Source: Blastocatellia bacterium (GTDB taxonomy: Bacteria > Acidobacteriota > Blastocatellia > UBA7656). From it: a DNA stretch of 64,000 bases. The notes beneath the pieces were generated by a model. The model ran no database searches. It had not been told where the DNA came from and saw only the letters and a program-made list of their open reading frames with translations. Positions 1-32,869 of this stretch are shown here, piece after piece (the first letter of the stretch is position 1; each line of letters begins with the position of its first letter). The position numbers and the translations under genes are program-made. The stretch lies in NCBI GenBank assembly GCA_044868105.1, contig JBIOWC010000196.1, positions 198 through 64,197 on the forward strand, written 5' to 3'.

Positions 1-2184
1 AAACCGGTTAATGCCGTCGCCTTTTCACCGGATGGAAAATATGTGCTGACGGGAAGCGATGACCATAGCGCGCGTTTATGGAATGTTAAAACGGCTAAGG
101 AAGTACGCCAATTCAGAGGGCATACCAGTCCGATTAACTCCGTCGCTTTTTCGCCTGACGGCCGATTGGTTTTAACCGGAAGCGGCGAAGCTTTTAAGCT
201 GCATAACGATAACCAAGCGTGCTTATGGGATACCCTGAGCGGTAAACAATTGCGGAGTTTTCCGGCGCTTTCGCCCTCGGTCAGCAGTGCAATATTTTCT
301 CCGGACGGCCAGTATGTTCTCACCTGTAATAGCGCCGGGCTGGTTGGCAAAGCCCACAACGCTGTACAGATGTGGAGTGTGCAAACGGGAAAAGAGGTCA
401 GGCGATTTAGCGGTCTTTCGACGTCCGTCAATGCCGTGGTGATGTCGCCTGATGGCAAGTATGTGTTTGCCGGGGGCGATGATTACCTCACCATGGTATG
501 GGACGCTTCAACGGGTAAGGAATTATGTCGTCTATTATCGTTCCAAAATGGCGACTGGGTCGTCGTGGATTCCGTCGGACGCTTCGATACCAACAATCTT
601 GAAGAGGTCAAAGGATTACATTGGATTATGCCTGATGATCCGCTGCGCCCTTTGCCGCTTGAGATTTTTATGCGCGATTACTATGAACCCCGCTTGTTAC
701 CGAGAATCCTGCGCGGCGAGCGCTTTAGCGAACCGAAAAGACTTTCCGAGGTGAACCGTGCCCAACCAAAGGTTGAGATTGTCGGCATCGAAAAATCGCC
801 AGACTCATCCGATTCGGTAACCGTTACCGTAAAAGTATCCCGGTCATCAGAAACGTTTGGCATCGGCGATAAGCGCATAAAACGCGAGACCGAAGTCTAT
901 GATTTGCGATTGTTTCGCAACGGGCAAATCGTCGGGCAATTTCCGGAGTATGAAAATTCCTCTCTGGTTTCTCGTCAAGCCATGTCATTCGCAGAAGAGT
1001 TAATGGTTTGGAGAAAAAACTCGCAGATCAATCTCAACCCGGGTGGCAGTAGAACCATTAAATTTGAAAAGGTGAAACTGCCCCGCACAAGCGATTCCGG
1101 CGAGCTAGAGTTTTCCGCTTATGCGTTTAATGACGATCGTATAAAAAGCCCGTTGTCCCGGATGACGTATGAAAATCCGGAATCGGCATCACCCGTGAAA
1201 GGGCGCGCCTATGTGGTAATGGTAGGAGTCAATGCTTACGAAAATTCCGATTGTGATTTGGCATTTGCAGCCAATGATGTGCGACAGATGCGAAATACGT
1301 TTGTCAAAAAAATCAAAGAAAACGGACAGTATGAAGAGGTAGTCGAAATCCCCCTTACCTCAGATTATGAAGAGAGCGCCAACGGGATTCACCGAGTCAC
1401 CCAACAGCTAGCGACCAAACGTAATATCAAAGCGGTTTTAGATTTGCTTGGCGGTAAACCGCTTGATGAAAAAGTAGCAAAAGGACTACCCAACGTCGAA
1501 AAGATAAGACCGGCGCAACCGGACGATTTGGTCTTGATATTCTTTTCCGGTCATGGCTACGCCGACGAAAAAGGCAATTTTTTTATTGTCCCTTATGATG
1601 TTGGCAAAGGTCGGGTCTGCGCTTTAACGGATGATCTCTTAAATCATTCGATAAACAGTGAAGAGTTAAGCGCCTGGCTTAAATATATAGACGGAGGAGA
1701 AATGTTGATGATTGTGGATACCTGCTATGCGGCGGCGGCGGTCGAGAATAAGCTTTTCAAGCCCGGTCCGATGGGCAGTCGCGGACTCGGGCAATTGGCT
1801 TATGATAAAGGCATGAAAATTCTGGCATCCACACAGGAGGATAATATCGCTGGAGAGATCCGCACGGTTGGGAAAGCGCTGGTCGAACAAGGGTTGTTAT
1901 CTTATGTGCTCACCAGAGAGGGAATAGAAGAAGGCTTGGCTGATTTCAAGCCGAAGGATGGTGTGATTACCATCAGTGAATGGCTGTTATATAGTGTTGA
2001 GCGCGTGCCGCAAATATATAAGGCTAAGTTACAGGAACTCGCTCAACGAGACCAAGACAATAAAGCCAATCCACTTAAACAACAAAGCGGAAAACCCGCC
2101 ATAGAAGTTAATGAGCCTATACAGCAACCTTCATTATTTGATTTCACGAGGAATCGCAAAGACCAGGTATTATTCAAGAAGTGA
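1..2184 (+). CDS. WD40-repeat protein fused to a caspase-like (peptidase C14) domain; 5'-partial because the reading frame is open to window position 1
   Basis: Frame 1 stays open from nt 1 (KPVNAVAFSPDGKYVLTGSDDHSARLWNV...). The N-terminal half has repeated WD40 units (SPDG..V(L/F)TGS, LWD, MWSV). The C-terminal half has a caspase His/Cys dyad context (LIFFSGHGYADEKGNFFIV, then MLMIVDTCYAAAAV). Confidence 0.75.
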   Translation, partial: KPVNAVAFSPDGKYVLTGSDDHSARLWNVKTAKEVRQFRGHTSPINSVAFSPDGRLVLTGSGEAFKLHNDNQACLWDTLSGKQLRSFPALSPSVSSAIFSPDGQYVLTCNSAGLVGKAHNAVQMWSVQTGKEVRRFSGLSTSVNAVVMSPDGKYVFAGGDDYLTMVWDASTGKELCRLLSFQNGDWVVVDSVGRFDTNNLEEVKGLHWIMPDDPLRPLPLEIFMRDYYEPRLLPRILRGERFSEPKRLSEVNRAQPKVEIVGIEKSPDSSDSVTVTVKVSRSSETFGIGDKRIKRETEVYDLRLFRNGQIVGQFPEYENSSLVSRQAMSFAEELMVWRKNSQINLNPGGSRTIKFEKVKLPRTSDSGELEFSAYAFNDDRIKSPLSRMTYENPESASPVKGRAYVVMVGVNAYENSDCDLAFAANDVRQMRNTFVKKIKENGQYEEVVEIPLTSDYEESANGIHRVTQQLATKRNIKAVLDLLGGKPLDEKVAKGLPNVEKIRPAQPDDLVLIFFSGHGYADEKGNFFIVPYDVGKGRVCALTDDLLNHSINSEELSAWLKYIDGGEMLMIVDTCYAAAAVENKLFKPGPMGSRGLGQLAYDKGMKILASTQEDNIAGEIRTVGKALVEQGLLSYVLTREGIEEGLADFKPKDGVITISEWLLYSVERVPQIYKAKLQELAQRDQDNKANPLKQQSGKPAIEVNEPIQQPSLFDFTRNRKDQVLFKK

Positions 2185-4794: not shown

Positions 4795-5733
4795 TTACCC
4801 CGTGGCGCTTGCGCACTGTAACGGCGTAAAGGGAACGAAGGCCTTTTCGCGTTCCAGTTTTTCTAAAATCACCTCGGCATGGGCGGCCTCGCGAATTAAA
4901 GATTTGAGCGTTGCAATTTGCCTGGCGGTTTCCAATTCGCATTGTAATTCGGCAAAAATTTGTGTCCGCTGCGCTCTTGAGAGGTGACCTTTGACGCGCT
5001 CGATTTGGGTGACCACCCCTTGCTGACCAACTTGCACCAGGCGGAAAAAGCTCATGAGGATTTCGAGAAGGCGTTCCAACTGAGGGTTCAACAACCTCTT
5101 TTCACTAAAGAGTAGCAATCCGCTGCCGTGATGGCGCGCTTCGTCTTTCAGGATATTTTCAAATACTTGTTTGAGCGCTGCGCTGTGGCACCCCTTCATC
5201 AGGGCGTTGTAATGCTTGATTCCCCAACCTTCGAGGATGACCTGGACGACATAAGTCAAGGTGGTTTTATCTTCGTGTTGCAAAATTTCACTGAGCAGTT
5301 GAATGAACGGCTGGTGCAGGCAATCGGCAATCGCGTCTTGCGCGGTGAATTTTGCAAGCCAACTGAAATGCGTCGCTTCGTCTGCAGCAAACAAACTATA
5401 GAGCATCTTCTCTTGAGTGGTTTCGGCAAGCAGACACATCTTCGGCGCGAAATACATTCCGCATTTTTCAATGTAATAAGATTCAGCCAACAGGCTGGCG
5501 CTGCACGCTCGCAATATTTTTTCTCGCTCTTCATCGCTTGATTGTTGGAATATCGCAACCCTGTTCAAACGGAACTGCTCGGCCGGCCAAAAGGCCTGAG
5601 AGGTCAGGTCGCCAGGCGTTTGAAAAGCCGTTTTACTTTTCAACGCGGATGCGAGAATGGGGTTGAGAAGATGCGCTGCGCCGGAGTCGGGTGAATCAAG
5701 ACGGGGTTCAATTTGAATGGTTGCTTCGGTCAT
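4795..5733 (-). CDS. Ferritin-like di-iron carboxylate protein (AurF/desaturase-like oxygenase fold), last gene of the oxygenase operon
   Basis: 312 aa with two E...EXXH half-sites (LLAESYYIEKCG / ADEATHFSW and VILEGWGIKHY / KDEARHHGSG). The 36-bp gap to the upstream SDR gene suggests co-transcription. Confidence 0.55.
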   Translation of the reverse strand: MTEATIQIEPRLDSPDSGAAHLLNPILASALKSKTAFQTPGDLTSQAFWPAEQFRLNRVAIFQQSSDEEREKILRACSASLLAESYYIEKCGMYFAPKMCLLAETTQEKMLYSLFAADEATHFSWLAKFTAQDAIADCLHQPFIQLLSEILQHEDKTTLTYVVQVILEGWGIKHYNALMKGCHSAALKQVFENILKDEARHHGSGLLLFSEKRLLNPQLERLLEILMSFFRLVQVGQQGVVTQIERVKGHLSRAQRTQIFAELQCELETARQIATLKSLIREAAHAEVILEKLEREKAFVPFTPLQCASATG

Positions 5734-13453: not shown

Positions 13454-14578
13454 ATGAATCAAGAAATTCGTTCCCTCTTTCCGGTTACGGAAAAATTTAT
13501 CTACTTCAATCACGCGGCGGTTTGCCCGCTGTCCACTCGTGCGCGCGATGCGATGACCTGGTTGGTTGATGATGTCACCATCAATGGCTCGTTCCATTTT
13601 TTCGATTGGTGCGACAGGTATGAAGCGGTCAGGGCGCAAGCGGCGCGACTGGTAAACGCTAACCCGAGCGAGATGGCCTTCATGAAAAACACTTCCGACG
13701 GGCTTTCGACTGTAGCCAACGGCCTCCCTTGGCGCGCCGGCGATAATGTCATCACCACGAATGTTGATTTTCCGTCAAATGTCTATCCCTGGATGCGCTT
13801 GCAACAAGAACAAGGCATTGAGATGAGAATGGTCGCTGAACGCGACGGACGTATTGATGCCGATGACGTCATTTCAATGATTGATGAACGTACGCGCATC
13901 GTGAGCCTCAGTTGGGTGCAATTTTCGAGCGGTTTTCGCGCTGACCTTGCGACCATCGGTAAAGCTTGTCGCGCGCGCGACGCGATTTTTATGATTGATG
14001 CGATTCAAGGACTCGGCGCGCTTAAACTGGATGTTGCGCGCGATTATGTAGATGCGTTTGCTGCCGACGCGCACAAGTATTTGCTGGGTCCCGAAGGGGT
14101 GGCATTGTTCTACGTTTCCGAACGCATCCTTGAGCGCATCAAACCTACGGTTGTCGGTTGGATGTCGGTCAATGATTTCACCAATCATCTGGATTACCGA
14201 TTGAGTTACCGCCCCGGAGCGCTCAGATACGAATGTGGCACGGTCAATACCGTAGGCATTTACGGATTGGGCGCCGCAATTGACCTGTTTTTAGAGGTCG
14301 GCTTAGAAAAGATTGAAGAACATATTTTGGATTTAAGCGATTATCTTGCCGGACGATTAGAAGAGAAAGGCTATCGCGTTTATGGTTCGCGCAAGCACTC
14401 CGAGATTTCGGCAATCGTGACCTGCACGCATGAACGTTACACCCCAAAAGCGCTTTATCAACGGCTTCATGAAAAGAACATCATTACGGCGCCGCGGGTC
14501 GGACGGCTGAGAATTTCGCCACACTTTTATAACACCCGCGAAGAGATTGACGCCTTGATTGAGGCGTTGCCAGAGTAA
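13454..14578 (+). CDS. Class V aminotransferase (PLP-dependent; cysteine desulfurase / isopenicillin-N epimerase-like)
   Basis: PLP-lysine context ADAHKYLLGPEGVALFY. Fold-type I aminotransferase spacing. 374 aa. Confidence 0.8.
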   Translation: MNQEIRSLFPVTEKFIYFNHAAVCPLSTRARDAMTWLVDDVTINGSFHFFDWCDRYEAVRAQAARLVNANPSEMAFMKNTSDGLSTVANGLPWRAGDNVITTNVDFPSNVYPWMRLQQEQGIEMRMVAERDGRIDADDVISMIDERTRIVSLSWVQFSSGFRADLATIGKACRARDAIFMIDAIQGLGALKLDVARDYVDAFAADAHKYLLGPEGVALFYVSERILERIKPTVVGWMSVNDFTNHLDYRLSYRPGALRYECGTVNTVGIYGLGAAIDLFLEVGLEKIEEHILDLSDYLAGRLEEKGYRVYGSRKHSEISAIVTCTHERYTPKALYQRLHEKNIITAPRVGRLRISPHFYNTREEIDALIEALPE

Positions 14579-14598: not shown

Positions 14599-15537
14599 TT
14601 GGAATTTCCCCTCTGGTTCACAACGGCATTGCCGGAAATTAAACAATCAAGTTTCCCGGCCTCCGCGCTCACCTTCTATAATGCTGGGGTGAGCCATAAA
14701 CACAAGCCTGAGCATTTAGTGCAGTTCAACGTCATCAACCCGAAATCCGTGCTCAATCCTTCGAGTATGGGTGGCTTTACGCTGAACCCATACGTCAGTT
14801 GCACAGTTGGCTGTTCCTACTGTTATGTACCGCATATGCGCCACAAACAATTGGAGACCAGAAAATGGGGGGCCTATGTTGACATTAAAGAGGGCGCTGT
14901 GGAATTGCTCGACCGTCAACTTGCGCGGTTGCGAAAGCCGACGACGATCTTTATGTCAACGGCGACCGATCCGTATCAGCCGGTTGAAGCGCGCTACGAG
15001 ATTACGCGGCGCATGCTGGAAGTCTTCCGACGCCATCCGCAACATGCTTTGTATATTCTTACTAAACAAGCGCTGGTTGAGCGCGACGTTGATCTGCTCA
15101 GACAACTGCCGCGCGTCGCCGTCGGCATGAGTATAGCGGTTATGGATGATCGCCTGGCACAACTGATTGAGCCGTGGGCTCCGATTACCAGTGACCGCCT
15201 TGCGCTCATCAAACGTTTATCCGGGCAGGGCATTCCAACTTATCTGCTCTGGGCACCTGCGATTGTACCCGTCGCCCTGAGCGAGACGTTTATTCGCTCG
15301 GCGGTTGAAGCAATTGTTGCAAGTGGCGCCGGCGCTTTGTCCATCGACACCATGAATTATCGTTCCAGCCAATCAGCGGGGCTGTTTCGCAGGTTGAGAC
15401 GTGAGGGACATGTGGCCGCCAACAAAGCCCAGACCCTCAGGATTCGCGCTGAGGCTGATCGCCGGGAGTTGGGTCGCCGGCTTGCGCTGGTTGAACCTGC
15501 GACAATCGAGGAAATGGCTCCCTTGTTGCCTTTCTAA
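14599..15537 (+). CDS. Radical SAM protein, SPL/DNA-photolyase-like (SplB COG1533 type); the true start is probably internal
   Basis: The LNPYVSCTVGCSYCYVP motif gives the CX3CX2C radical-SAM cluster in the SplB-like context (NPY.GC...C.YCY). An alternative start lies at about 14767. Confidence 0.6.
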   Translation: MEFPLWFTTALPEIKQSSFPASALTFYNAGVSHKHKPEHLVQFNVINPKSVLNPSSMGGFTLNPYVSCTVGCSYCYVPHMRHKQLETRKWGAYVDIKEGAVELLDRQLARLRKPTTIFMSTATDPYQPVEARYEITRRMLEVFRRHPQHALYILTKQALVERDVDLLRQLPRVAVGMSIAVMDDRLAQLIEPWAPITSDRLALIKRLSGQGIPTYLLWAPAIVPVALSETFIRSAVEAIVASGAGALSIDTMNYRSSQSAGLFRRLRREGHVAANKAQTLRIRAEADRRELGRRLALVEPATIEEMAPLLPF

Positions 15538-15644
15538 AGGCTCAGGTTCATCAGGTGAGCTGATTATTTGAAATTTAATAGTATTCTAATTTTGTGTTGC
15601 CGAATCGATTTGCTGTTCTATAAAGTTTTAGGACAAATCAAGGT

Positions 15645-15989
15645 ATGGGAGAAAATTCGACAAATCTTGCTGCCGAGCTTACCGTCTTCCACCAAGACGA
15701 AGGCGACTACACGAGCCGCACCATATACATCTCCGTCGATGGCAAGAAAATCGCCAGCGTAAAATCGGGAGCTTCCGTCACCGTGGAGATCACGCCGGGT
15801 AAGCACATTCTTCAAGCGGACAATACTTTCACGAAGAAGCGAGAACCCTTTGAAGCGCATCCCGGTGAAAAACTGCGTTATGTGACCCGCAATCGTATCG
15901 GCTTCGGCTCATCGCTAATCAGCATTCTCGGCGCGGGACCGGTCTACCTCATTTTGCAGAGAGAAGCCGAAGCGGCAAGCTCAAATTAG
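15645..15989 (+). CDS. Hypothetical protein
   Basis: 114-aa ORF in an AT-rich patch. It has a C-terminal hydrophobic segment (GFGSSLISILGAGPVYLIL) and no recognisable motif. Confidence 0.3.
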   Translation: MGENSTNLAAELTVFHQDEGDYTSRTIYISVDGKKIASVKSGASVTVEITPGKHILQADNTFTKKREPFEAHPGEKLRYVTRNRIGFGSSLISILGAGPVYLILQREAEAASSN

Positions 15990-16043
15990 CACCACACAGG
16001 ATTAGGACACTAACCTAATGCTACTTGCCCGGCTCAAGGCACT

Positions 16044-16874
16044 TTGATAGAACAGGATTATTTTGAGCTTATTTTTATTATGTTTGTTTTAGGTAAGGGA
16101 AAATCCACAGGTAAAATCGTCAATAGTCTGAGTGATGATGGAGTCATCATAAGCACGACACATTATTCGGTTGAAGAGTGTAACCAGGGACTGCATTACC
16201 ATGAAAATCCGCACCTCTGTTTCCTATTTCAAGGCGAAGATATAGAGAGCCGCAATAATCTTTCCTATCGGCGAAAAACCGGAGACATTTACTTTTATTA
16301 TGCCGGAGAGACGCACGCTTCGATTTCCCGTACAGGTATTTCAAAAAATACCAATATTGAATTTGGAGAAACTTTTCTAAAGAAATATGAGGTTTCAGAA
16401 TCCCAGATTGCCAGGGCGATAAAAGACAATTTAGATGCCAGGTTCCTCATCTTAAAAATGCAGCAGGAAATGTTAATTGGCGACCGTTGCAGCCGCCTCA
16501 CGATTCAGATGCTTTTACTCAATTTAATTCACGATGCAAATCCCACCTCTAACCAATCGCCTCCGAAATGGGTACAACGATTAGCTGAGTTGCTCGATGA
16601 GAAATGGAACCAACAAGTCACCTTACATGAACTTTCAATGGCGACCGAAGTGCACCCGGTAACCATTTCAAAATACTTCAGAAAGTACTTTTCCTGTACC
16701 TTAGGAGAATACCTGCGAAAACTAAAGATTGATAAAAGTATTTCATTAATTAAAAACACACGTATGTCACTTACCGAAATTGCTCTTTATTGCGGCTTTG
16801 CCGACCAAAGCCATTTCACCAGAAATTTCAAGCACCTGACCGGCTTTTCGCCCAAAGAATTCCGCAATATCTAA
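16044..16874 (+). CDS. AraC/XylS-family transcriptional regulator
   Basis: C-terminal double HTH (LTEIALYCGFADQSHFTRNFKHLTGFSPKEFR) and an N-terminal cupin-like sensing domain. The gene is conspicuously AT-rich (about 40% GC) against a roughly 58% background. Confidence 0.85.
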   Translation: MIEQDYFELIFIMFVLGKGKSTGKIVNSLSDDGVIISTTHYSVEECNQGLHYHENPHLCFLFQGEDIESRNNLSYRRKTGDIYFYYAGETHASISRTGISKNTNIEFGETFLKKYEVSESQIARAIKDNLDARFLILKMQQEMLIGDRCSRLTIQMLLLNLIHDANPTSNQSPPKWVQRLAELLDEKWNQQVTLHELSMATEVHPVTISKYFRKYFSCTLGEYLRKLKIDKSISLIKNTRMSLTEIALYCGFADQSHFTRNFKHLTGFSPKEFRNI

Positions 16875-17025
16875 ATTCCGCAGCTCGCTAATCTCATTCT
16901 ATTTTTTCCCAGTTCCTGCCCTATACTTGCTCTCAAAGCCTGGCCTGATAATGGGCTGCTGCCGTTCTGCAGCGCAGGTTACCATTGCAGAACTGGCTCA
17001 TAAAATATTTTGGGAAGCAAGTTGT

Positions 17026-18489
17026 ATGCATATCAATCTTATTCGGTCATATCGTTTTTTCACGCTAATGGCGTTGTGCTTGCTCAGCGTGCAGGGTAGC
17101 GCGGCACAGGCTCCAACCGCCAAACAAGTTGCCGCAAAAGTTGACGAGTATATGAATGCCGCCGTCAAATTCGACCAGTTCAGTGGTGCGGTTCTCATCG
17201 CAAGGGACGGCGCGCCCATCGTAAGCCGTAGCTATGGGATGGCAAACTACGAATTGAAGGTGCCGAACACGCCGAAGACGGTTTTCGAAACCGGTTCGGT
17301 TACCAAGCAATTTACCGCGATGGCGATTATGCAATTGCAGGAACGCGGGAAATTGAATGTCAATGATTCGATTTGCAAATATCTGGAAGACTGTCCGGCG
17401 GCGTGGCAATCCGTGACGATTCGTCATCTTTTGACGCACACTTCCGGCATTATGAACTATTCAAGTCTTCCCGATTGGGACGATAAAATTTCCCTGCTGC
17501 CTTACACTCGTGCAGGATTCGTGAAAGTGTTCCGCGATATACCGCTCGAATTTGTGCCGGGCGAGAAATTCAAATACAGCAATTCCGGATATTATCTGCT
17601 CGGCTTGATTATTGAACGCGCATCGGGCAAGTCATATCGGGAATTTTTGAGCGAGAACATTTTCGTGCCCTTAGGGATGAAAAGCTCGAGCTACAACGAC
17701 CCGCCTGCGCTCATCCCGAATCGCGCCACTGGTTACTATTGGGAATTAAATTCATTTATCAGCGCACCAAATGAAAATTTGGCGCTTGGCTTTGCAGCAA
17801 GTGGCATCTATACGACGATTGAAGATCTACTGCTATGGGACAAGGCGCTTTATACCGAAAAACTCGTCTCTCGTAAATCGCTGGATGAAATCTTTACCCC
17901 ATTCCTTGAGGAATACGGTTATGGCTGGCTAATCGGCAAAAAGTTTGACCGGCAGATGATAAGTCATAGCGGCAGACACAATGGTTTTAAAGCCTACATC
18001 GCCCGCTTTCCCGCCGCGCGGGTGACGGTCATCGTTTTGAGCAATAGCGACAGAACGTCTGCGACCAAGGCGGCAACTAATCTCGCCGCAATTGCCTTCG
18101 GCGCGCCCTACAAGCTGCCCATACTGCAGGGTTCGGATATGCTATCAGCAGCCATCGCGGAAAAAGGTATCGAGGCTGCTATGCGGCAATACCGTGAATT
18201 AAAACGCTCCCAACCAGAAAAGTATAATTTTAATGAACCGGAGCGGGCACTAAATGATTTAGGCTATGCTTTGCTCGGACGCCGAAAGGTGAAAGAGGCA
18301 ATCGAAGTTTTCAAATTGAATGTCGAGATGTTTCGGCAATCGGCCAACGCCTATGACAGTTTAGGCGAAGCTTATATGTTGAGTGGGAACAAAGAGCTGG
18401 CCATCGAGAATTATAAAAAATCGCTGGAACTTGACCCGCAAAATATCAATGCCGGCGATATGCTAAAGAAGTTACGAGAAAGCAAATAA
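17026..18489 (+). CDS. Secreted beta-lactamase-family serine hydrolase with C-terminal TPR repeats
   Basis: Signal peptide (MHINLIRSYRFFTLMALCLLSVQGSAAQA). The S-x-x-K active site is GSVTKQF, with a YSN-like motif (KYSNSGYYLL). The C-terminus has TPR-like repeats (ALNDLGYALLGRRKVKEAIEVFKLNVEMFRQSANAYDSLGEAYM...). Confidence 0.8.
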   Translation: MHINLIRSYRFFTLMALCLLSVQGSAAQAPTAKQVAAKVDEYMNAAVKFDQFSGAVLIARDGAPIVSRSYGMANYELKVPNTPKTVFETGSVTKQFTAMAIMQLQERGKLNVNDSICKYLEDCPAAWQSVTIRHLLTHTSGIMNYSSLPDWDDKISLLPYTRAGFVKVFRDIPLEFVPGEKFKYSNSGYYLLGLIIERASGKSYREFLSENIFVPLGMKSSSYNDPPALIPNRATGYYWELNSFISAPNENLALGFAASGIYTTIEDLLLWDKALYTEKLVSRKSLDEIFTPFLEEYGYGWLIGKKFDRQMISHSGRHNGFKAYIARFPAARVTVIVLSNSDRTSATKAATNLAAIAFGAPYKLPILQGSDMLSAAIAEKGIEAAMRQYRELKRSQPEKYNFNEPERALNDLGYALLGRRKVKEAIEVFKLNVEMFRQSANAYDSLGEAYMLSGNKELAIENYKKSLELDPQNINAGDMLKKLRESK

Positions 18490-18512
18490 CCTCAGCTCAA
18501 CATAAGAAAAGA

Positions 18513-18741
18513 TGATCGGTAGTCTACGAAAGTCGCATCGCTAGTGAGAACATAGCGCTTGCCGGGGTCGCAGACTTGGCGTTCTTGGCGAAAGCTTGGC
18601 GTCTTGGCGTGAAACCACCCCCGCGACCATCCCCTTTCTCGCCAAGACGCTATGCTCCGCAAAGCTCGCCAAGGAGGATAGCGCTTACCAACACGCATCG
18701 ACAGGAACTTGAGCAACACAACTTTAAGAGACTACCGAAAT
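18513..18741. repeat. About 230-bp imperfect long palindrome / structured element downstream of the beta-lactamase-family gene
   Basis: Outer inverted pair CGGTAGTCTACGAAA ... AGAGACTACCGAAAT. ATAGCGCTT(G/A)CC direct repeats. Triple CTTGGCG (18575-18611) opposed to CGCCAAG x2 (18641-18675), centred on GAAACCACCCCCGCGACCATCCCC. Confidence 0.55.
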
Positions 18742-18780
18742 TTCCTTGACCGGAAATCGCGCCAGCCTCTATGCTAACCG

Positions 18781-18885
18781 TGTATAGTGGTCGTGGTGAT
18801 TTAAAGCAAATTGCTCCACGTTAAAGATGTGCTAAATCGCAAGGAAAATTTTCAGGCCTTGTGCAAATTTAGCACAAGGCTTTTT
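18781..18885 (+). ncRNA. Candidate small RNA or leader/attenuator transcript upstream of the peroxiredoxin gene
   Basis: Putative promoter TTGACC (18746-18751) with a 17-18 nt spacer and CTATGCT. About 100 nt downstream is a strong intrinsic terminator, GCCTTGTGC-AAATTTA-GCACAAGGC + TTTTT (18856-18885). It is nested in a larger GTGCTAAAT/ATTTAGCAC inverted repeat and lies about 115 bp upstream of the prx start. Confidence 0.3.
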
Positions 18886-19000
18886 CGTTGGATGGCAGCG
18901 AAAATAAAAGCTGTTATGATTAATAGCCCATTCTTTCAAGGGTAGCCCCCTGAAAGTAGAGCTTAAAGTTCAAAATTTAATGAGAAAGGACGCAAACAAC

Positions 19001-19636
19001 ATGGCTCTGAGATTAGGAGACACAGCACCCGATTTTACTGCGGATACTACGGAAGGCACGATCAATTTTCACGAATGGCTCGGCGAAGGCTGGGGAGTTC
19101 TGTTTTCACACCCGAAAGATTTTACACCCGTTTGTACCACTGAACTTGGCGCGGCAGCACGACTCAAACCCGAATTTGAAAAACGCAATGTGAAAATAAT
19201 CGGTCTCAGCGTTGACCCGCTCGATTCTCACAAAGGTTGGGCATCAGACATCGAAGAGACGCAAGGCCAGGCGTTGAATTTCCCGGTCATCGCCGATGCT
19301 GACCGGAAAGTGTCAGACCTCTACGATATGATTCATCCCAATGCCAGCGACACCTTTACCGTGCGTTCCGTATTCGTCATCGGACCCGATAAGAAGGTCA
19401 AATTAACGCTGACTTATCCGGCAAGCACCGGTCGCAACTTCGATGAACTGCTGCGAGTGATAGATTCGTTGCAACTGACCGCCAAACACAGCGTGGCAAC
19501 CCCCGTAAACTGGAAACACGGCGAAGATGTCATCATCGTTCCGGCGCTTTCCGATGAACAGGCAAAAGAGAAATTCCCCGAAGGTTGGAAGACGCTCAAA
19601 CCTTACCTGCGCGTCGTTAAACAACCGGGAAATTAA
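19001..19636 (+). CDS. Peroxiredoxin (1-Cys Prx / Prx6 subfamily)
   Basis: FTPVCTTE peroxidatic-Cys motif. SD GAGAAAGGA lies before the ATG at 19001. An intrinsic terminator follows at 19663-19698. Confidence 0.85.
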   Translation: MALRLGDTAPDFTADTTEGTINFHEWLGEGWGVLFSHPKDFTPVCTTELGAAARLKPEFEKRNVKIIGLSVDPLDSHKGWASDIEETQGQALNFPVIADADRKVSDLYDMIHPNASDTFTVRSVFVIGPDKKVKLTLTYPASTGRNFDELLRVIDSLQLTAKHSVATPVNWKHGEDVIIVPALSDEQAKEKFPEGWKTLKPYLRVVKQPGN

Positions 19637-19662: not shown

Positions 19663-19698
19663 AAAGGCTGCCGACATCGGCAGCCTTTTGTGATTTGC
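19663..19698 (+). terminator. Rho-independent terminator downstream of the peroxiredoxin
   Basis: AAAAGGCTGCCG-ACAT-CGGCAGCCTTTT hairpin followed by GTGATTTG. Confidence 0.65.
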
Positions 19699-32597: not shown

Positions 32598-32782
32598 GCC
32601 CCGAAGGGGCGAGATTCAATAGCTTAGGGCAACGCCCGGAGAAATGCAGGTCTCGGTTCTCAAGCCCTGAAAGGGCGACATTAGCTACCCCGATTTATTT
32701 CGCCCTTTCAGGGCTTTTCGTTTTCATGCCCGACATTTCCCGGCGCGATACGCCGGGCTATTGAATTGCGCCCTTTCAGGGC
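32598..32782. repeat. Cluster of REP-like 13-nt palindromic hairpins (GCCCTGAAAGGGC and variants) in both orientations
   Basis: GCCCCGAAGGGGC (32598-32610), GCCCTGAAAGGGC (32664-32676), GCCCTTTCAGGGC (32702-32714), GCCCTTTCAGGGC (32770-32782), plus CCCGGCG-CGATA-CGCCGGG (32739-32757). All lie in the 308-bp spacer between the SUKH-like gene and the ABC ATPase start. Confidence 0.65.
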
Positions 32783-32869
32783 TTCGCTCAACTTTATAAA
32801 ACCGAACAAGGCTACTTACTTTCGGTGATTGAACATTCGCAATGCAGCGACCGGATTCATCATATGCGA

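Follow-up and report, generated by a model that had tools for sequence, protein, structure and literature searches.

Known SAM-II-class riboswitches and the window locus

SAM-II riboswitches (Rfam RF00521, SAM_alpha; the metA motif of alpha-proteobacteria) recognise S-adenosylmethionine (SAM) with an H-type pseudoknot that has a 5-bp helix P1, a U-rich loop L1 containing GAUUU, a helix P2 of AUUGC paired with GC-U-AAA, in which one U stays unpaired to receive the adenine of SAM, and an A-rich loop L3 with GUUAAA; a terminator-type expression platform is the majority type for the class (PMC6061858). SAM-V riboswitches (metY and bhmT genes of marine alpha-proteobacteria), which fall in the SAM-II general class, have the same binding core, including an A.A pair beside the U:A.U triples, and act translationally, with the Shine-Dalgarno sequence hidden in P2a and an extra hairpin, P3. 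The third described system of relevance here is a gene rather than an RNA: lsfA, a peroxiredoxin gene that owes its name to induction by low-sulfate medium (PMC4199769), is among the genes that Pseudomonas induces on sulfate starvation (PMC12581299, PMC4199769) and rises more than 45-fold on sulfur starvation, the rationale of antioxidant induction under sulfur limitation being still debated (PMC12581299). We analysed a stretch of 64,000 nucleotides from a Blastocatellia bacterium (contig JBIOWC010000196.1 of assembly GCA_044868105.1), referred to as the window, in which a gap of 511 nt on the + strand, between a beta-lactamase-fold/TPR gene (16927-18489) and a peroxiredoxin gene, prx (19001-19636), contains a short unit running from a promoter to a terminator. 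The original prediction had proposed this unit as either a small RNA gene or an attenuator.

We put the probability at about three in four that the unit serves as 5' leader to the prx mRNA and carries a SAM-II-class riboswitch acting by transcription termination. Since the sensor is a SAM-II-class aptamer, the signal is most likely SAM, and so the methionine or sulfur status of the cell, rather than H2O2. The window element reproduces each of the SAM-II features given above, terminator-type platform included. It departs from SAM-II in its Rfam score (23 versus 36 bits), in an L3 one nucleotide shorter than the Rfam consensus, in a P2a of 2 bp where five G-C pairs are common, in belonging to an acidobacterial subtype without the pair next to P1 (alignment columns 33-49), and in its Blastocatellia-like acidobacterial host and its target, which is a peroxiredoxin and not a methionine or SAM gene. 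The 2-bp P2a is shared with SAM-V, as are the binding core and a P1-proximal end of P2 that has only two Watson-Crick pairs. Unlike SAM-V, the window element has no P3, and its intrinsic terminator lies about 115 nt upstream of the start codon.

Anatomy of the aptamer

All ligand-pocket nucleotides of the SAM-II class (GAUUU, AUUGC and GCUAAA) are present, both when read directly and in the Rfam alignment. A permissive E-value scan of 18400-19100 (701 nt) matches RF00521 at 18783-18855 with 23.0 bits (E=0.007), and every consensus box is aligned: CGUGGUGAUUU, CCACGUUAAA and GCUAAA. The aptamer as a whole is assigned from this match, from the covariance model R1 described below, from covariation and from published structures; its parts were mapped from the latter (PMC6061858, PMC3303485).

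18792-18840, + strand: SAM-II-class aptamer, H-type pseudoknot
18792-18796 with 18816-18820, + strand: P1, CGUGG with CCACG, 5 bp
18797-18804, + strand: L1, the third strand, UGAUUUAA, with GAUUU at 18798-18802
18806-18807 with 18839-18840, + strand: P2a, GC with GC, 2 bp only
18809-18814, + strand: P2 5' strand, AAUUGC (AUUGC at 18810-18814)
18821-18830, + strand: L3, UUAAAGAUGU
18831-18837, + strand: P2 3' strand, GCUAAAU (GCUAAA at 18831-18836), U18833 unpaired

P2 consists of a G-C, a C-G, two U-A, an A.A and an A-U pair, with U18833 left out. In the solved structures the uridine equivalent to U18833 is left out of the helix and pairs with the adenine of SAM, U18811-U18812 with A18834-A18835 correspond to the U-A pairs of the sulfonium-binding triples, and A18810 with A18836 corresponds to the A.A pair that touches the methionine end of the ligand (PMC6061858, PMC3303485). 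The known contact positions are therefore intact in the window copy: the unpaired U of GC-U-AAA, the partners of the U:A.U triples, the A.A pair and the A-rich L3. The last is present as GUUAAAG at 18820-18826, and its invariance across the relatives is by construction of the search pattern.

A scan at the Rfam gathering thresholds over the whole window gives nothing at the unit. Standard annotation misses the aptamer because its score is below the 36-bit gathering threshold of RF00521.

Relatives of the aptamer

Relatives were collected by scanning one genome per species for the exact pattern GTGATTT-N10-18-CACGTTAAA-N5-GCTAAA; comparison loci fetched from other genomes and contigs carry L-numbers. 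At least 119 loci match. A few are alpha-proteobacterial, and most come from Gemmatimonadota and Acidobacteriota (Blastocatellia, Terriglobia), two phyla in which SAM-II-class riboswitches are abundant. For each match the longest open reading frame (ORF) starting within 500 nt on the 3' side was taken as the downstream gene, and these were then clustered. In the relatives listed the aptamer is always on the same strand as, and 5' of, a gene; among the matches listed, the targets are as follows.

MetH: 42 copies
threonine-synthase-like, pyridoxal-phosphate-dependent (PLP) enzyme (thrC-like): 21 copies
Cys/Met-metabolism PLP enzyme (Cys_Met_Meta_PP, metY-like): 10 copies
class I/II aminotransferase: 9 copies
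MetX-like hydrolase: 5 copies
homoserine dehydrogenase: 5 copies
peroxiredoxin: 5 copies, with the window, L001, L002 and L006 included
SDR-family oxidoreductase: 4 copies (L058, L060, L110, L111)
PanB (ketopantoate hydroxymethyltransferase): 2 copies

L001, L002 and L006 were fetched separately by way of their Prx protein, so that L109 is the only prx-linked locus among the matches listed. This set of downstream genes is as expected for SAM riboswitches.

An alignment of 113 distinct aptamer copies (A2), from which R1 was built, has the pseudoknot (P1 with P2 and P2a) 93.6% paired, compared with 26-48% when the partners are slid. Among the free columns of these 113 relatives, pair 33-49 changes in a compensatory manner (AU 43, GC 30, CG 2, UA 1), as does pair 22-60 (CG 26, GC 23). 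With R1 the window scores 65.7 bits, by construction, and L207, which is outside the model, 62.6 bits. The Rfam scores of sampled loci descend by group, against the same cut-off of 36.

Gemmatimonadota and alpha-proteobacteria: 42-45 bits
Terriglobia, L039: 36.2 bits
Blastocatellia, L035: 30.2 bits
prx-linked copies: window 23.0 bits, relatives 23.6-24.6 bits

The scores run as a continuum through the same aptamer, and the shortfall of the window is one of annotation criterion, not of structure.

Over the 49-nt core, L002 and L006 match at every position a copy preceding a thrC-like gene in L120, a Blastocatellia metagenome-assembled genome (MAG). The window core differs from L120 at 2 of the 49 positions, one in L3 and one just 3' of the GCUAAA box, both outside the SAM-contact positions as defined in PMC6061858. 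This identity suggests that the prx aptamer arose by duplication of the thrC-like copy and, on the same grounds, that the two would share a ligand.

Several features of the relatives stand apart from the question of the prx leader. The commonest acidobacterial target is the threonine-synthase-like PLP enzyme, of about 413 aa (TIGR00260 thrC, 290 bits), found at L010, L035, L067, L074, L089, L115 and L120 in Blastocatellia and at other loci; a ThrC homolog under SAM control may have a role in the methionine pathway (e.g. a phosphohomoserine-dependent route) and not in threonine synthesis. Further non-canonical targets in Acidobacteriota and Gemmatimonadota, besides the SDR-family oxidoreductase and PanB (L016 and L056), are a protein of about 1078 aa (L040 and L068) and one of 353 aa (L071), both without a family match. 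At about 5109-5171 (-) of L089 there is a tandem duplication of ATGTGCTAAACCGCAAG, which comprises the P2 3' strand and the start of the platform, and L094 has two aptamers on opposite strands, 111-175 (-) and 1323-1387 (+), about 1.2 kb apart. Five loci (L008, L110, L125, L082 and L025) are labelled Heliomicrobium, Heliobacteriaceae, Clostridia, Bacillota or Planctomycetota, and their aptamers and platforms are near-identical to acidobacterial or gemmatimonadal ones, L110 being near-identical to L058 from an Acidobacteria MAG; it is possible that these MAG contigs are mis-binned.

Promoter, terminator and antiterminator

The unit is bounded, as the original prediction had it, by a promoter with TTGACC and TATGCT boxes and by a strong intrinsic terminator, and a second, longer inverted repeat does overlap the latter. 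The repeat (GTGCTAAAT at 18829-18837 with ATTTAGCAC at 18867-18875) gains one more pair to reach 10 bp and is what we now read as the antiterminator.

18746-18775, + strand: promoter P1, -35 TTGACC at 18746-18751, 18-nt spacer, -10 TATGCT at 18770-18775, 9 of 12 consensus positions
18828-18837 with 18867-18876, + strand: antiterminator, UGUGCUAAAU with AUUUAGCACA, from folding energies and covariation
18854-18864 with 18872-18882, + strand: intrinsic terminator stem, loop 18865-18871, U-rich tail UUUUUCGUU to 18889, from folding and covariation

Consensus matches by themselves are weak against chance: a consensus scan of a 3-kb region finds 7 promoter-like sites where 3.4 are expected and 5 terminator-like sites where 4.1 are expected. 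Their significance comes from comparison between loci. A TTGAC -35 and a TAnnnT -10 at 17-18 nt spacing, 12-18 nt 5' of helix P1, were found by pattern search in 21 of 34 acidobacterial copies, whatever gene follows the aptamer, and in most of the remaining 13 a TTGAC is visible by eye. In L001, L002, L006, L109 and L207 the pair TTGAC and TAT(G/T)CT is held at a constant spacing of 18 nt while the spacer sequence has diverged. By this comparative evidence the promoter is real, because its pattern is conserved across acidobacterial copies and its spacing is kept though the spacer diverges. Transcription would then start near 18782, about 7 nt past the TATGCT box, and the terminated RNA would be of about 105 nt.

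The terminator stem, AGGCCTTGTGC and GCACAAGGCTT around the loop AAATTTA, has 11 pairs, 6 of them G-C, with a 7-nt loop, and is followed by a T-run and CGTT; by itself it folds at -17.8 kcal/mol. In an alignment of 18 acidobacterial copies (A3), which was used for both terminator and antiterminator covariation, 96.5% of the terminator cells are paired and 4 pairs are changed on both sides. The distance from the terminator to the ATG of prx at 19001 is 116 nt, on the same strand, in keeping with the 115 bp or so first estimated.

The antiterminator is mutually exclusive with both the P2 pseudoknot, with which it shares GCUAAAU, and the terminator, since AUUUAGCACA lies in the terminator loop and 3' arm. 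It can be extended by pairing CGCAAGG (18838-18844) with CCUUGUG (18857-18863) of the terminator 5' arm. Plain minimum-free-energy (MFE) folding cannot represent the pseudoknot, mis-pairing GAUUU with AAAUU, and was applied to the expression platform only. There, a transcript ending at 18876 has the antiterminator as its MFE fold, at -27.3 kcal/mol, so that this helix forms first; for the full leader there is little to choose between the terminator fold, at -30.9 kcal/mol, and the forced antiterminator, at -30.7 kcal/mol. Pairing in the main antiterminator helix reaches 97.8% over the 18 acidobacterial copies, and pair 23-57, which follows the AAA, covaries between CG (11 copies, AAAC/GUUU) and UA (3 copies, AAAU/AUUU). 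More widely, a complement to the GCUAAA box occurs on its 3' side with 9-12 bp in 45 of 122 relatives and with at least 5 bp in 63 of 122, as compared with 2-5 bp in shuffled sequences. An intrinsic terminator together with an exclusive antiterminator that shares the ligand-stabilised aptamer helix is the arrangement of a terminating riboswitch.

The direction of the switch is taken to be OFF because the antiterminator draws on GCUAAAU, the stretch that bound SAM keeps in P2; in vivo, the following course would be expected. RNA would start near 18782 from the TATGCT box, and the first 60 nt or so would fold into the H-type pseudoknot, in which SAM would hold GCUAAAU in P2 against AAUUGC with the GAUUU loop seated in the P2 groove. 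With the box so occupied, only the terminator (18854-18882 and the U-tract) could form downstream, RNA polymerase would release an RNA of about 105 nt, and prx would not be transcribed from promoter P1. At low SAM, the GUGCUAAAU box would be free to pair with AUUUAGCAC in the terminator loop and 3' arm, CGCAAGG would pair with the terminator 5' arm, and the blocked terminator would permit read-through over about 115 nt into prx. Expression of prx should accordingly go up when SAM, methionine or sulfur limits.

Leader between terminator and prx

The sequence that follows the terminator is also conserved, and RNAalifold finds two hairpins in it.

18891-18956, + strand: conserved post-terminator leader
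18891-18918, + strand: hairpin A, AUGGCAGC...GCUGUUAU
18933-18956, + strand: hairpin B, CUUUCAAGGG with CCCCUGAAAG

As DNA, hairpin A is also a promoter-like site (18892-18920), ATGGCA-17 nt-TATGAT with the TG of an extended -10; its two boxes are mutually complementary and fold as an RNA hairpin. At the position of hairpin B, L109 and L207 have compensatory changes and a different hairpin in the same place. The motif GGCAG-N-AAGCTGnTATnAT is restricted to riboswitch-bearing prx loci. The element may serve as a second promoter or, alternatively, as a structured 5' untranslated region. A sigma-54 reading of TGGCAG...GC was tried and rejected, the GG-GC spacing being 16 nt where 12 are expected. 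An ORF of 44 aa (18811-18945) overlaps the aptamer and the terminator, with its TTG start within P2.

Association of the cassette with prx

19001-19636, + strand: prx, a Prx6-type 1-Cys peroxiredoxin of 211 aa with a PVCTTE active site (Pfam, NCBIfam peroxiredoxin)

The protein has the Pfam domains AhpC-TSA and 1-cysPrx_C. Its closest solved relatives are P. aeruginosa LsfA structures (6P0W, 7KUU; E=5e-98), and its near homologs come from Acidobacteriota and Blastocatellia MAGs. The start at 19001 is favoured over an ATG at 18980 because of a conserved ribosome-binding site, AAGGA, at 18986-18990. The gene is monocistronic, with its own terminator near 19666-19689 and the next gene on the opposite strand.

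By complete cassette we mean the promoter, aptamer, terminator, conserved leader of about 110 nt and prx. The cassette occurs 5' of prx on seven contigs: the window, L001, L002, L005 (in part, on a truncated contig), L006, L109 and L207. Prx identity across the carriers is 83-100% (L001 96%, L207 88%, L109 83%), and L109 and L207 carry an insertion of about 80 nt in the cassette flanks. In L001, L002, L006 and L207 the upstream neighbour, directly adjoining the cassette, is a class-V aminotransferase (Aminotran_5). The window has this aminotransferase at 13454-14578, separated from the cassette by three genes (14599-18489) for a radical-SAM/DUF5131 protein, an AraC-type regulator and the beta-lactamase-fold/TPR protein, which looks like a local insertion in the window genome. 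Because the upstream neighbours differ while the cassette stays, it belongs with prx and not with the upstream gene. The association of prx with the cassette is conserved and confined to a few lineages.

A nested palindromic element of about 220 nt (18516-18738) lies between the stop codon of the beta-lactamase-fold/TPR gene and the riboswitch promoter. The outer arms read TCGGTAGTCT.../...AGACTACCGA, the inner ones are made up of CTTGGCG repeats (18575-18614 with 18635-18673), and folding of the intergenic sequence gives z=-5.1. Neither the window nor the fetched loci contain another copy, and the orthologous loci are without the element.

Weighing the riboswitch against other explanations

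Several observations tell against a SAM-responsive prx leader. The window copy precedes a 1-Cys peroxiredoxin gene and not, as is usual for the class, a gene of methionine or SAM metabolism, and curated riboswitch surveys drop hits with unreasonable gene associations (PMC5473149). Its Rfam score of 23 bits is below the gathering threshold of 36. The cassette is missing at L206, although its Prx is 92% identical and the Aminotran_5 synteny is the same, and at L003 and L004 (88% identical Prx), and neither the regular expression nor the covariance model finds an aptamer in 80 metagenomic prx loci (72-86% identity; 66 with at least 300 nt upstream). Conservation of the hairpins upstream of prx orthologs, which the original prediction had offered as a check, thus holds on the seven contigs and fails at more than 80 other prx loci. 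The scan pattern fixes many aptamer columns, which leaves covariation informative in the free columns only, and SAM binding by the window copy, like its effect on expression, is proposed from comparative evidence. Lastly, if the promoter-like site past the terminator is real, some prx expression would bypass the riboswitch.

As to the choice originally left between small RNA and attenuator, the conserved promoter, the terminator, the covarying alternative helix and the constant company of prx all speak for an attenuation leader, and nothing argues for an independent small RNA acting in trans. That a stand-alone gene makes a functional transcript of about 105 nt, maybe trans-acting, with prx served by its own downstream promoter, is unlikely. 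It would account for a discrete unit bracketed by conserved promoter and terminator and for the conserved TG-extended promoter-like site at 18892-18920, but the same aptamer and platform form an ordinary cis leader before metH, thrC-like and metX-like genes in more than 100 relatives, a conserved, covarying antiterminator would be purposeless unless read-through matters, and the post-terminator motif is self-complementary, restricted to riboswitch loci and may be part of the leader. There is a known parallel in Listeria, where SreA and SreB, terminated SAM-I riboswitch RNAs, act in trans; as in the window, a promoter-to-terminator riboswitch unit gives a discrete, SAM-bound RNA of about 100 nt, although the aptamer class is a different one. 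The terminated product of the window, in its SAM-bound state, could in principle act in trans as well. We think it highly improbable that the hairpin does no more than terminate the beta-lactamase-fold/TPR gene, with the promoter-like site a chance match. The hairpin is indeed on the same strand and 3' of that gene, and promoter matches are common locally (7 against 3.4), yet it lies 365 nt beyond the stop codon, the same promoter, aptamer and terminator are found in L001, L002, L006 and L207 downstream of an aminotransferase gene, and among acidobacterial copies the spacing between promoter and helix P1 is fixed.

The unusual target, the sub-threshold Rfam score and the lack of the cassette at many closely related prx genes, including the syntenic one in L206, could also be explained by a decaying or orphan riboswitch, left before prx by rearrangement and regulating nothing. 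We hold this to be quite unlikely. No ligand-contacting position has been lost, and the core either matches copies preceding methionine-pathway genes exactly or is 2 of 49 positions removed from them. Down to 83% Prx identity the spacing of the promoter, the antiterminator and the terminator have all been preserved, with compensatory changes, while the flanks diverge, and the cassette travelled with prx when an insertion of three genes separated it from the aminotransferase. Changes of ligand specificity are known for the folds of other riboswitch classes, and a gene context outside methionine biosynthesis would suit an aptamer re-purposed for another ligand, e.g. S-adenosylhomocysteine or an oxidised sulfur metabolite. 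Such a change is very improbable here, given that the binding-site nucleotides are unchanged, that L002 and L006 share their core, letter for letter, with the copy before the thrC-like gene in a related Blastocatellia genome, and that the two differences of the window are off the SAM contacts. We therefore retain the SAM-II-class transcription-terminating leader of prx as the preferred reading.

Physiological meaning

SAM-linked control of prx is plausible because the protein is closest to the sulfate-starvation-induced LsfA. The two belong to the same Prx6-type 1-Cys subfamily, and both would rise when sulfur metabolites are scarce; by homology, de-repression of prx on a fall in SAM would mimic the Pseudomonas pattern by way of an RNA sensor. 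The sulfate-starvation gene set of Pseudomonas is under protein regulators, whereas the sensor proposed for the window is an RNA that reads SAM directly. We lean, with somewhat less assurance than for the riboswitch itself, towards recruitment of a SAM riboswitch in a small clade of Acidobacteriota, probably by duplication of a thrC-like or other met copy, for control of an LsfA-type 1-Cys prx, such that falling SAM would switch antioxidant defence on directly.

The riboswitch class is well understood and no new mechanism is needed; what is new is the unusual target gene. A SAM riboswitch before an LsfA-type prx would be a simple, testable molecular link from sulfur or methionine status to peroxide defence and, if the proposal is true, an RNA-based counterpart of the unexplained connection between sulfur starvation and antioxidants in Pseudomonas. 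No earlier case of a riboswitch-controlled peroxiredoxin turned up in the searchable literature, and this one would be the first. There, we found no SAM riboswitch linked to a peroxiredoxin, the combination of SAM-II, riboswitch and peroxiredoxin giving only an unrelated ahpC leader motif, PBC-28-3. The same literature has no mention of a SAM-II riboswitch together with Gemmatimonadetes, and for SAM-II riboswitch with Acidobacteria it gives only NAD+-riboswitch papers or broad surveys. With the acidobacterial subtype below the Rfam cut-off and odd gene contexts dropped from surveys (PMC5473149), such copies would go unannotated.

Other RNA features of the window

No tRNA or tmRNA genes were found in the window. 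Its sole match at an Rfam gathering threshold is an Acido-Lenti-1 RNA (RF01687) at 32739-32783 (+), with 41.5 bits against a cut-off of 37 bits, which agrees with an acidobacterial host.

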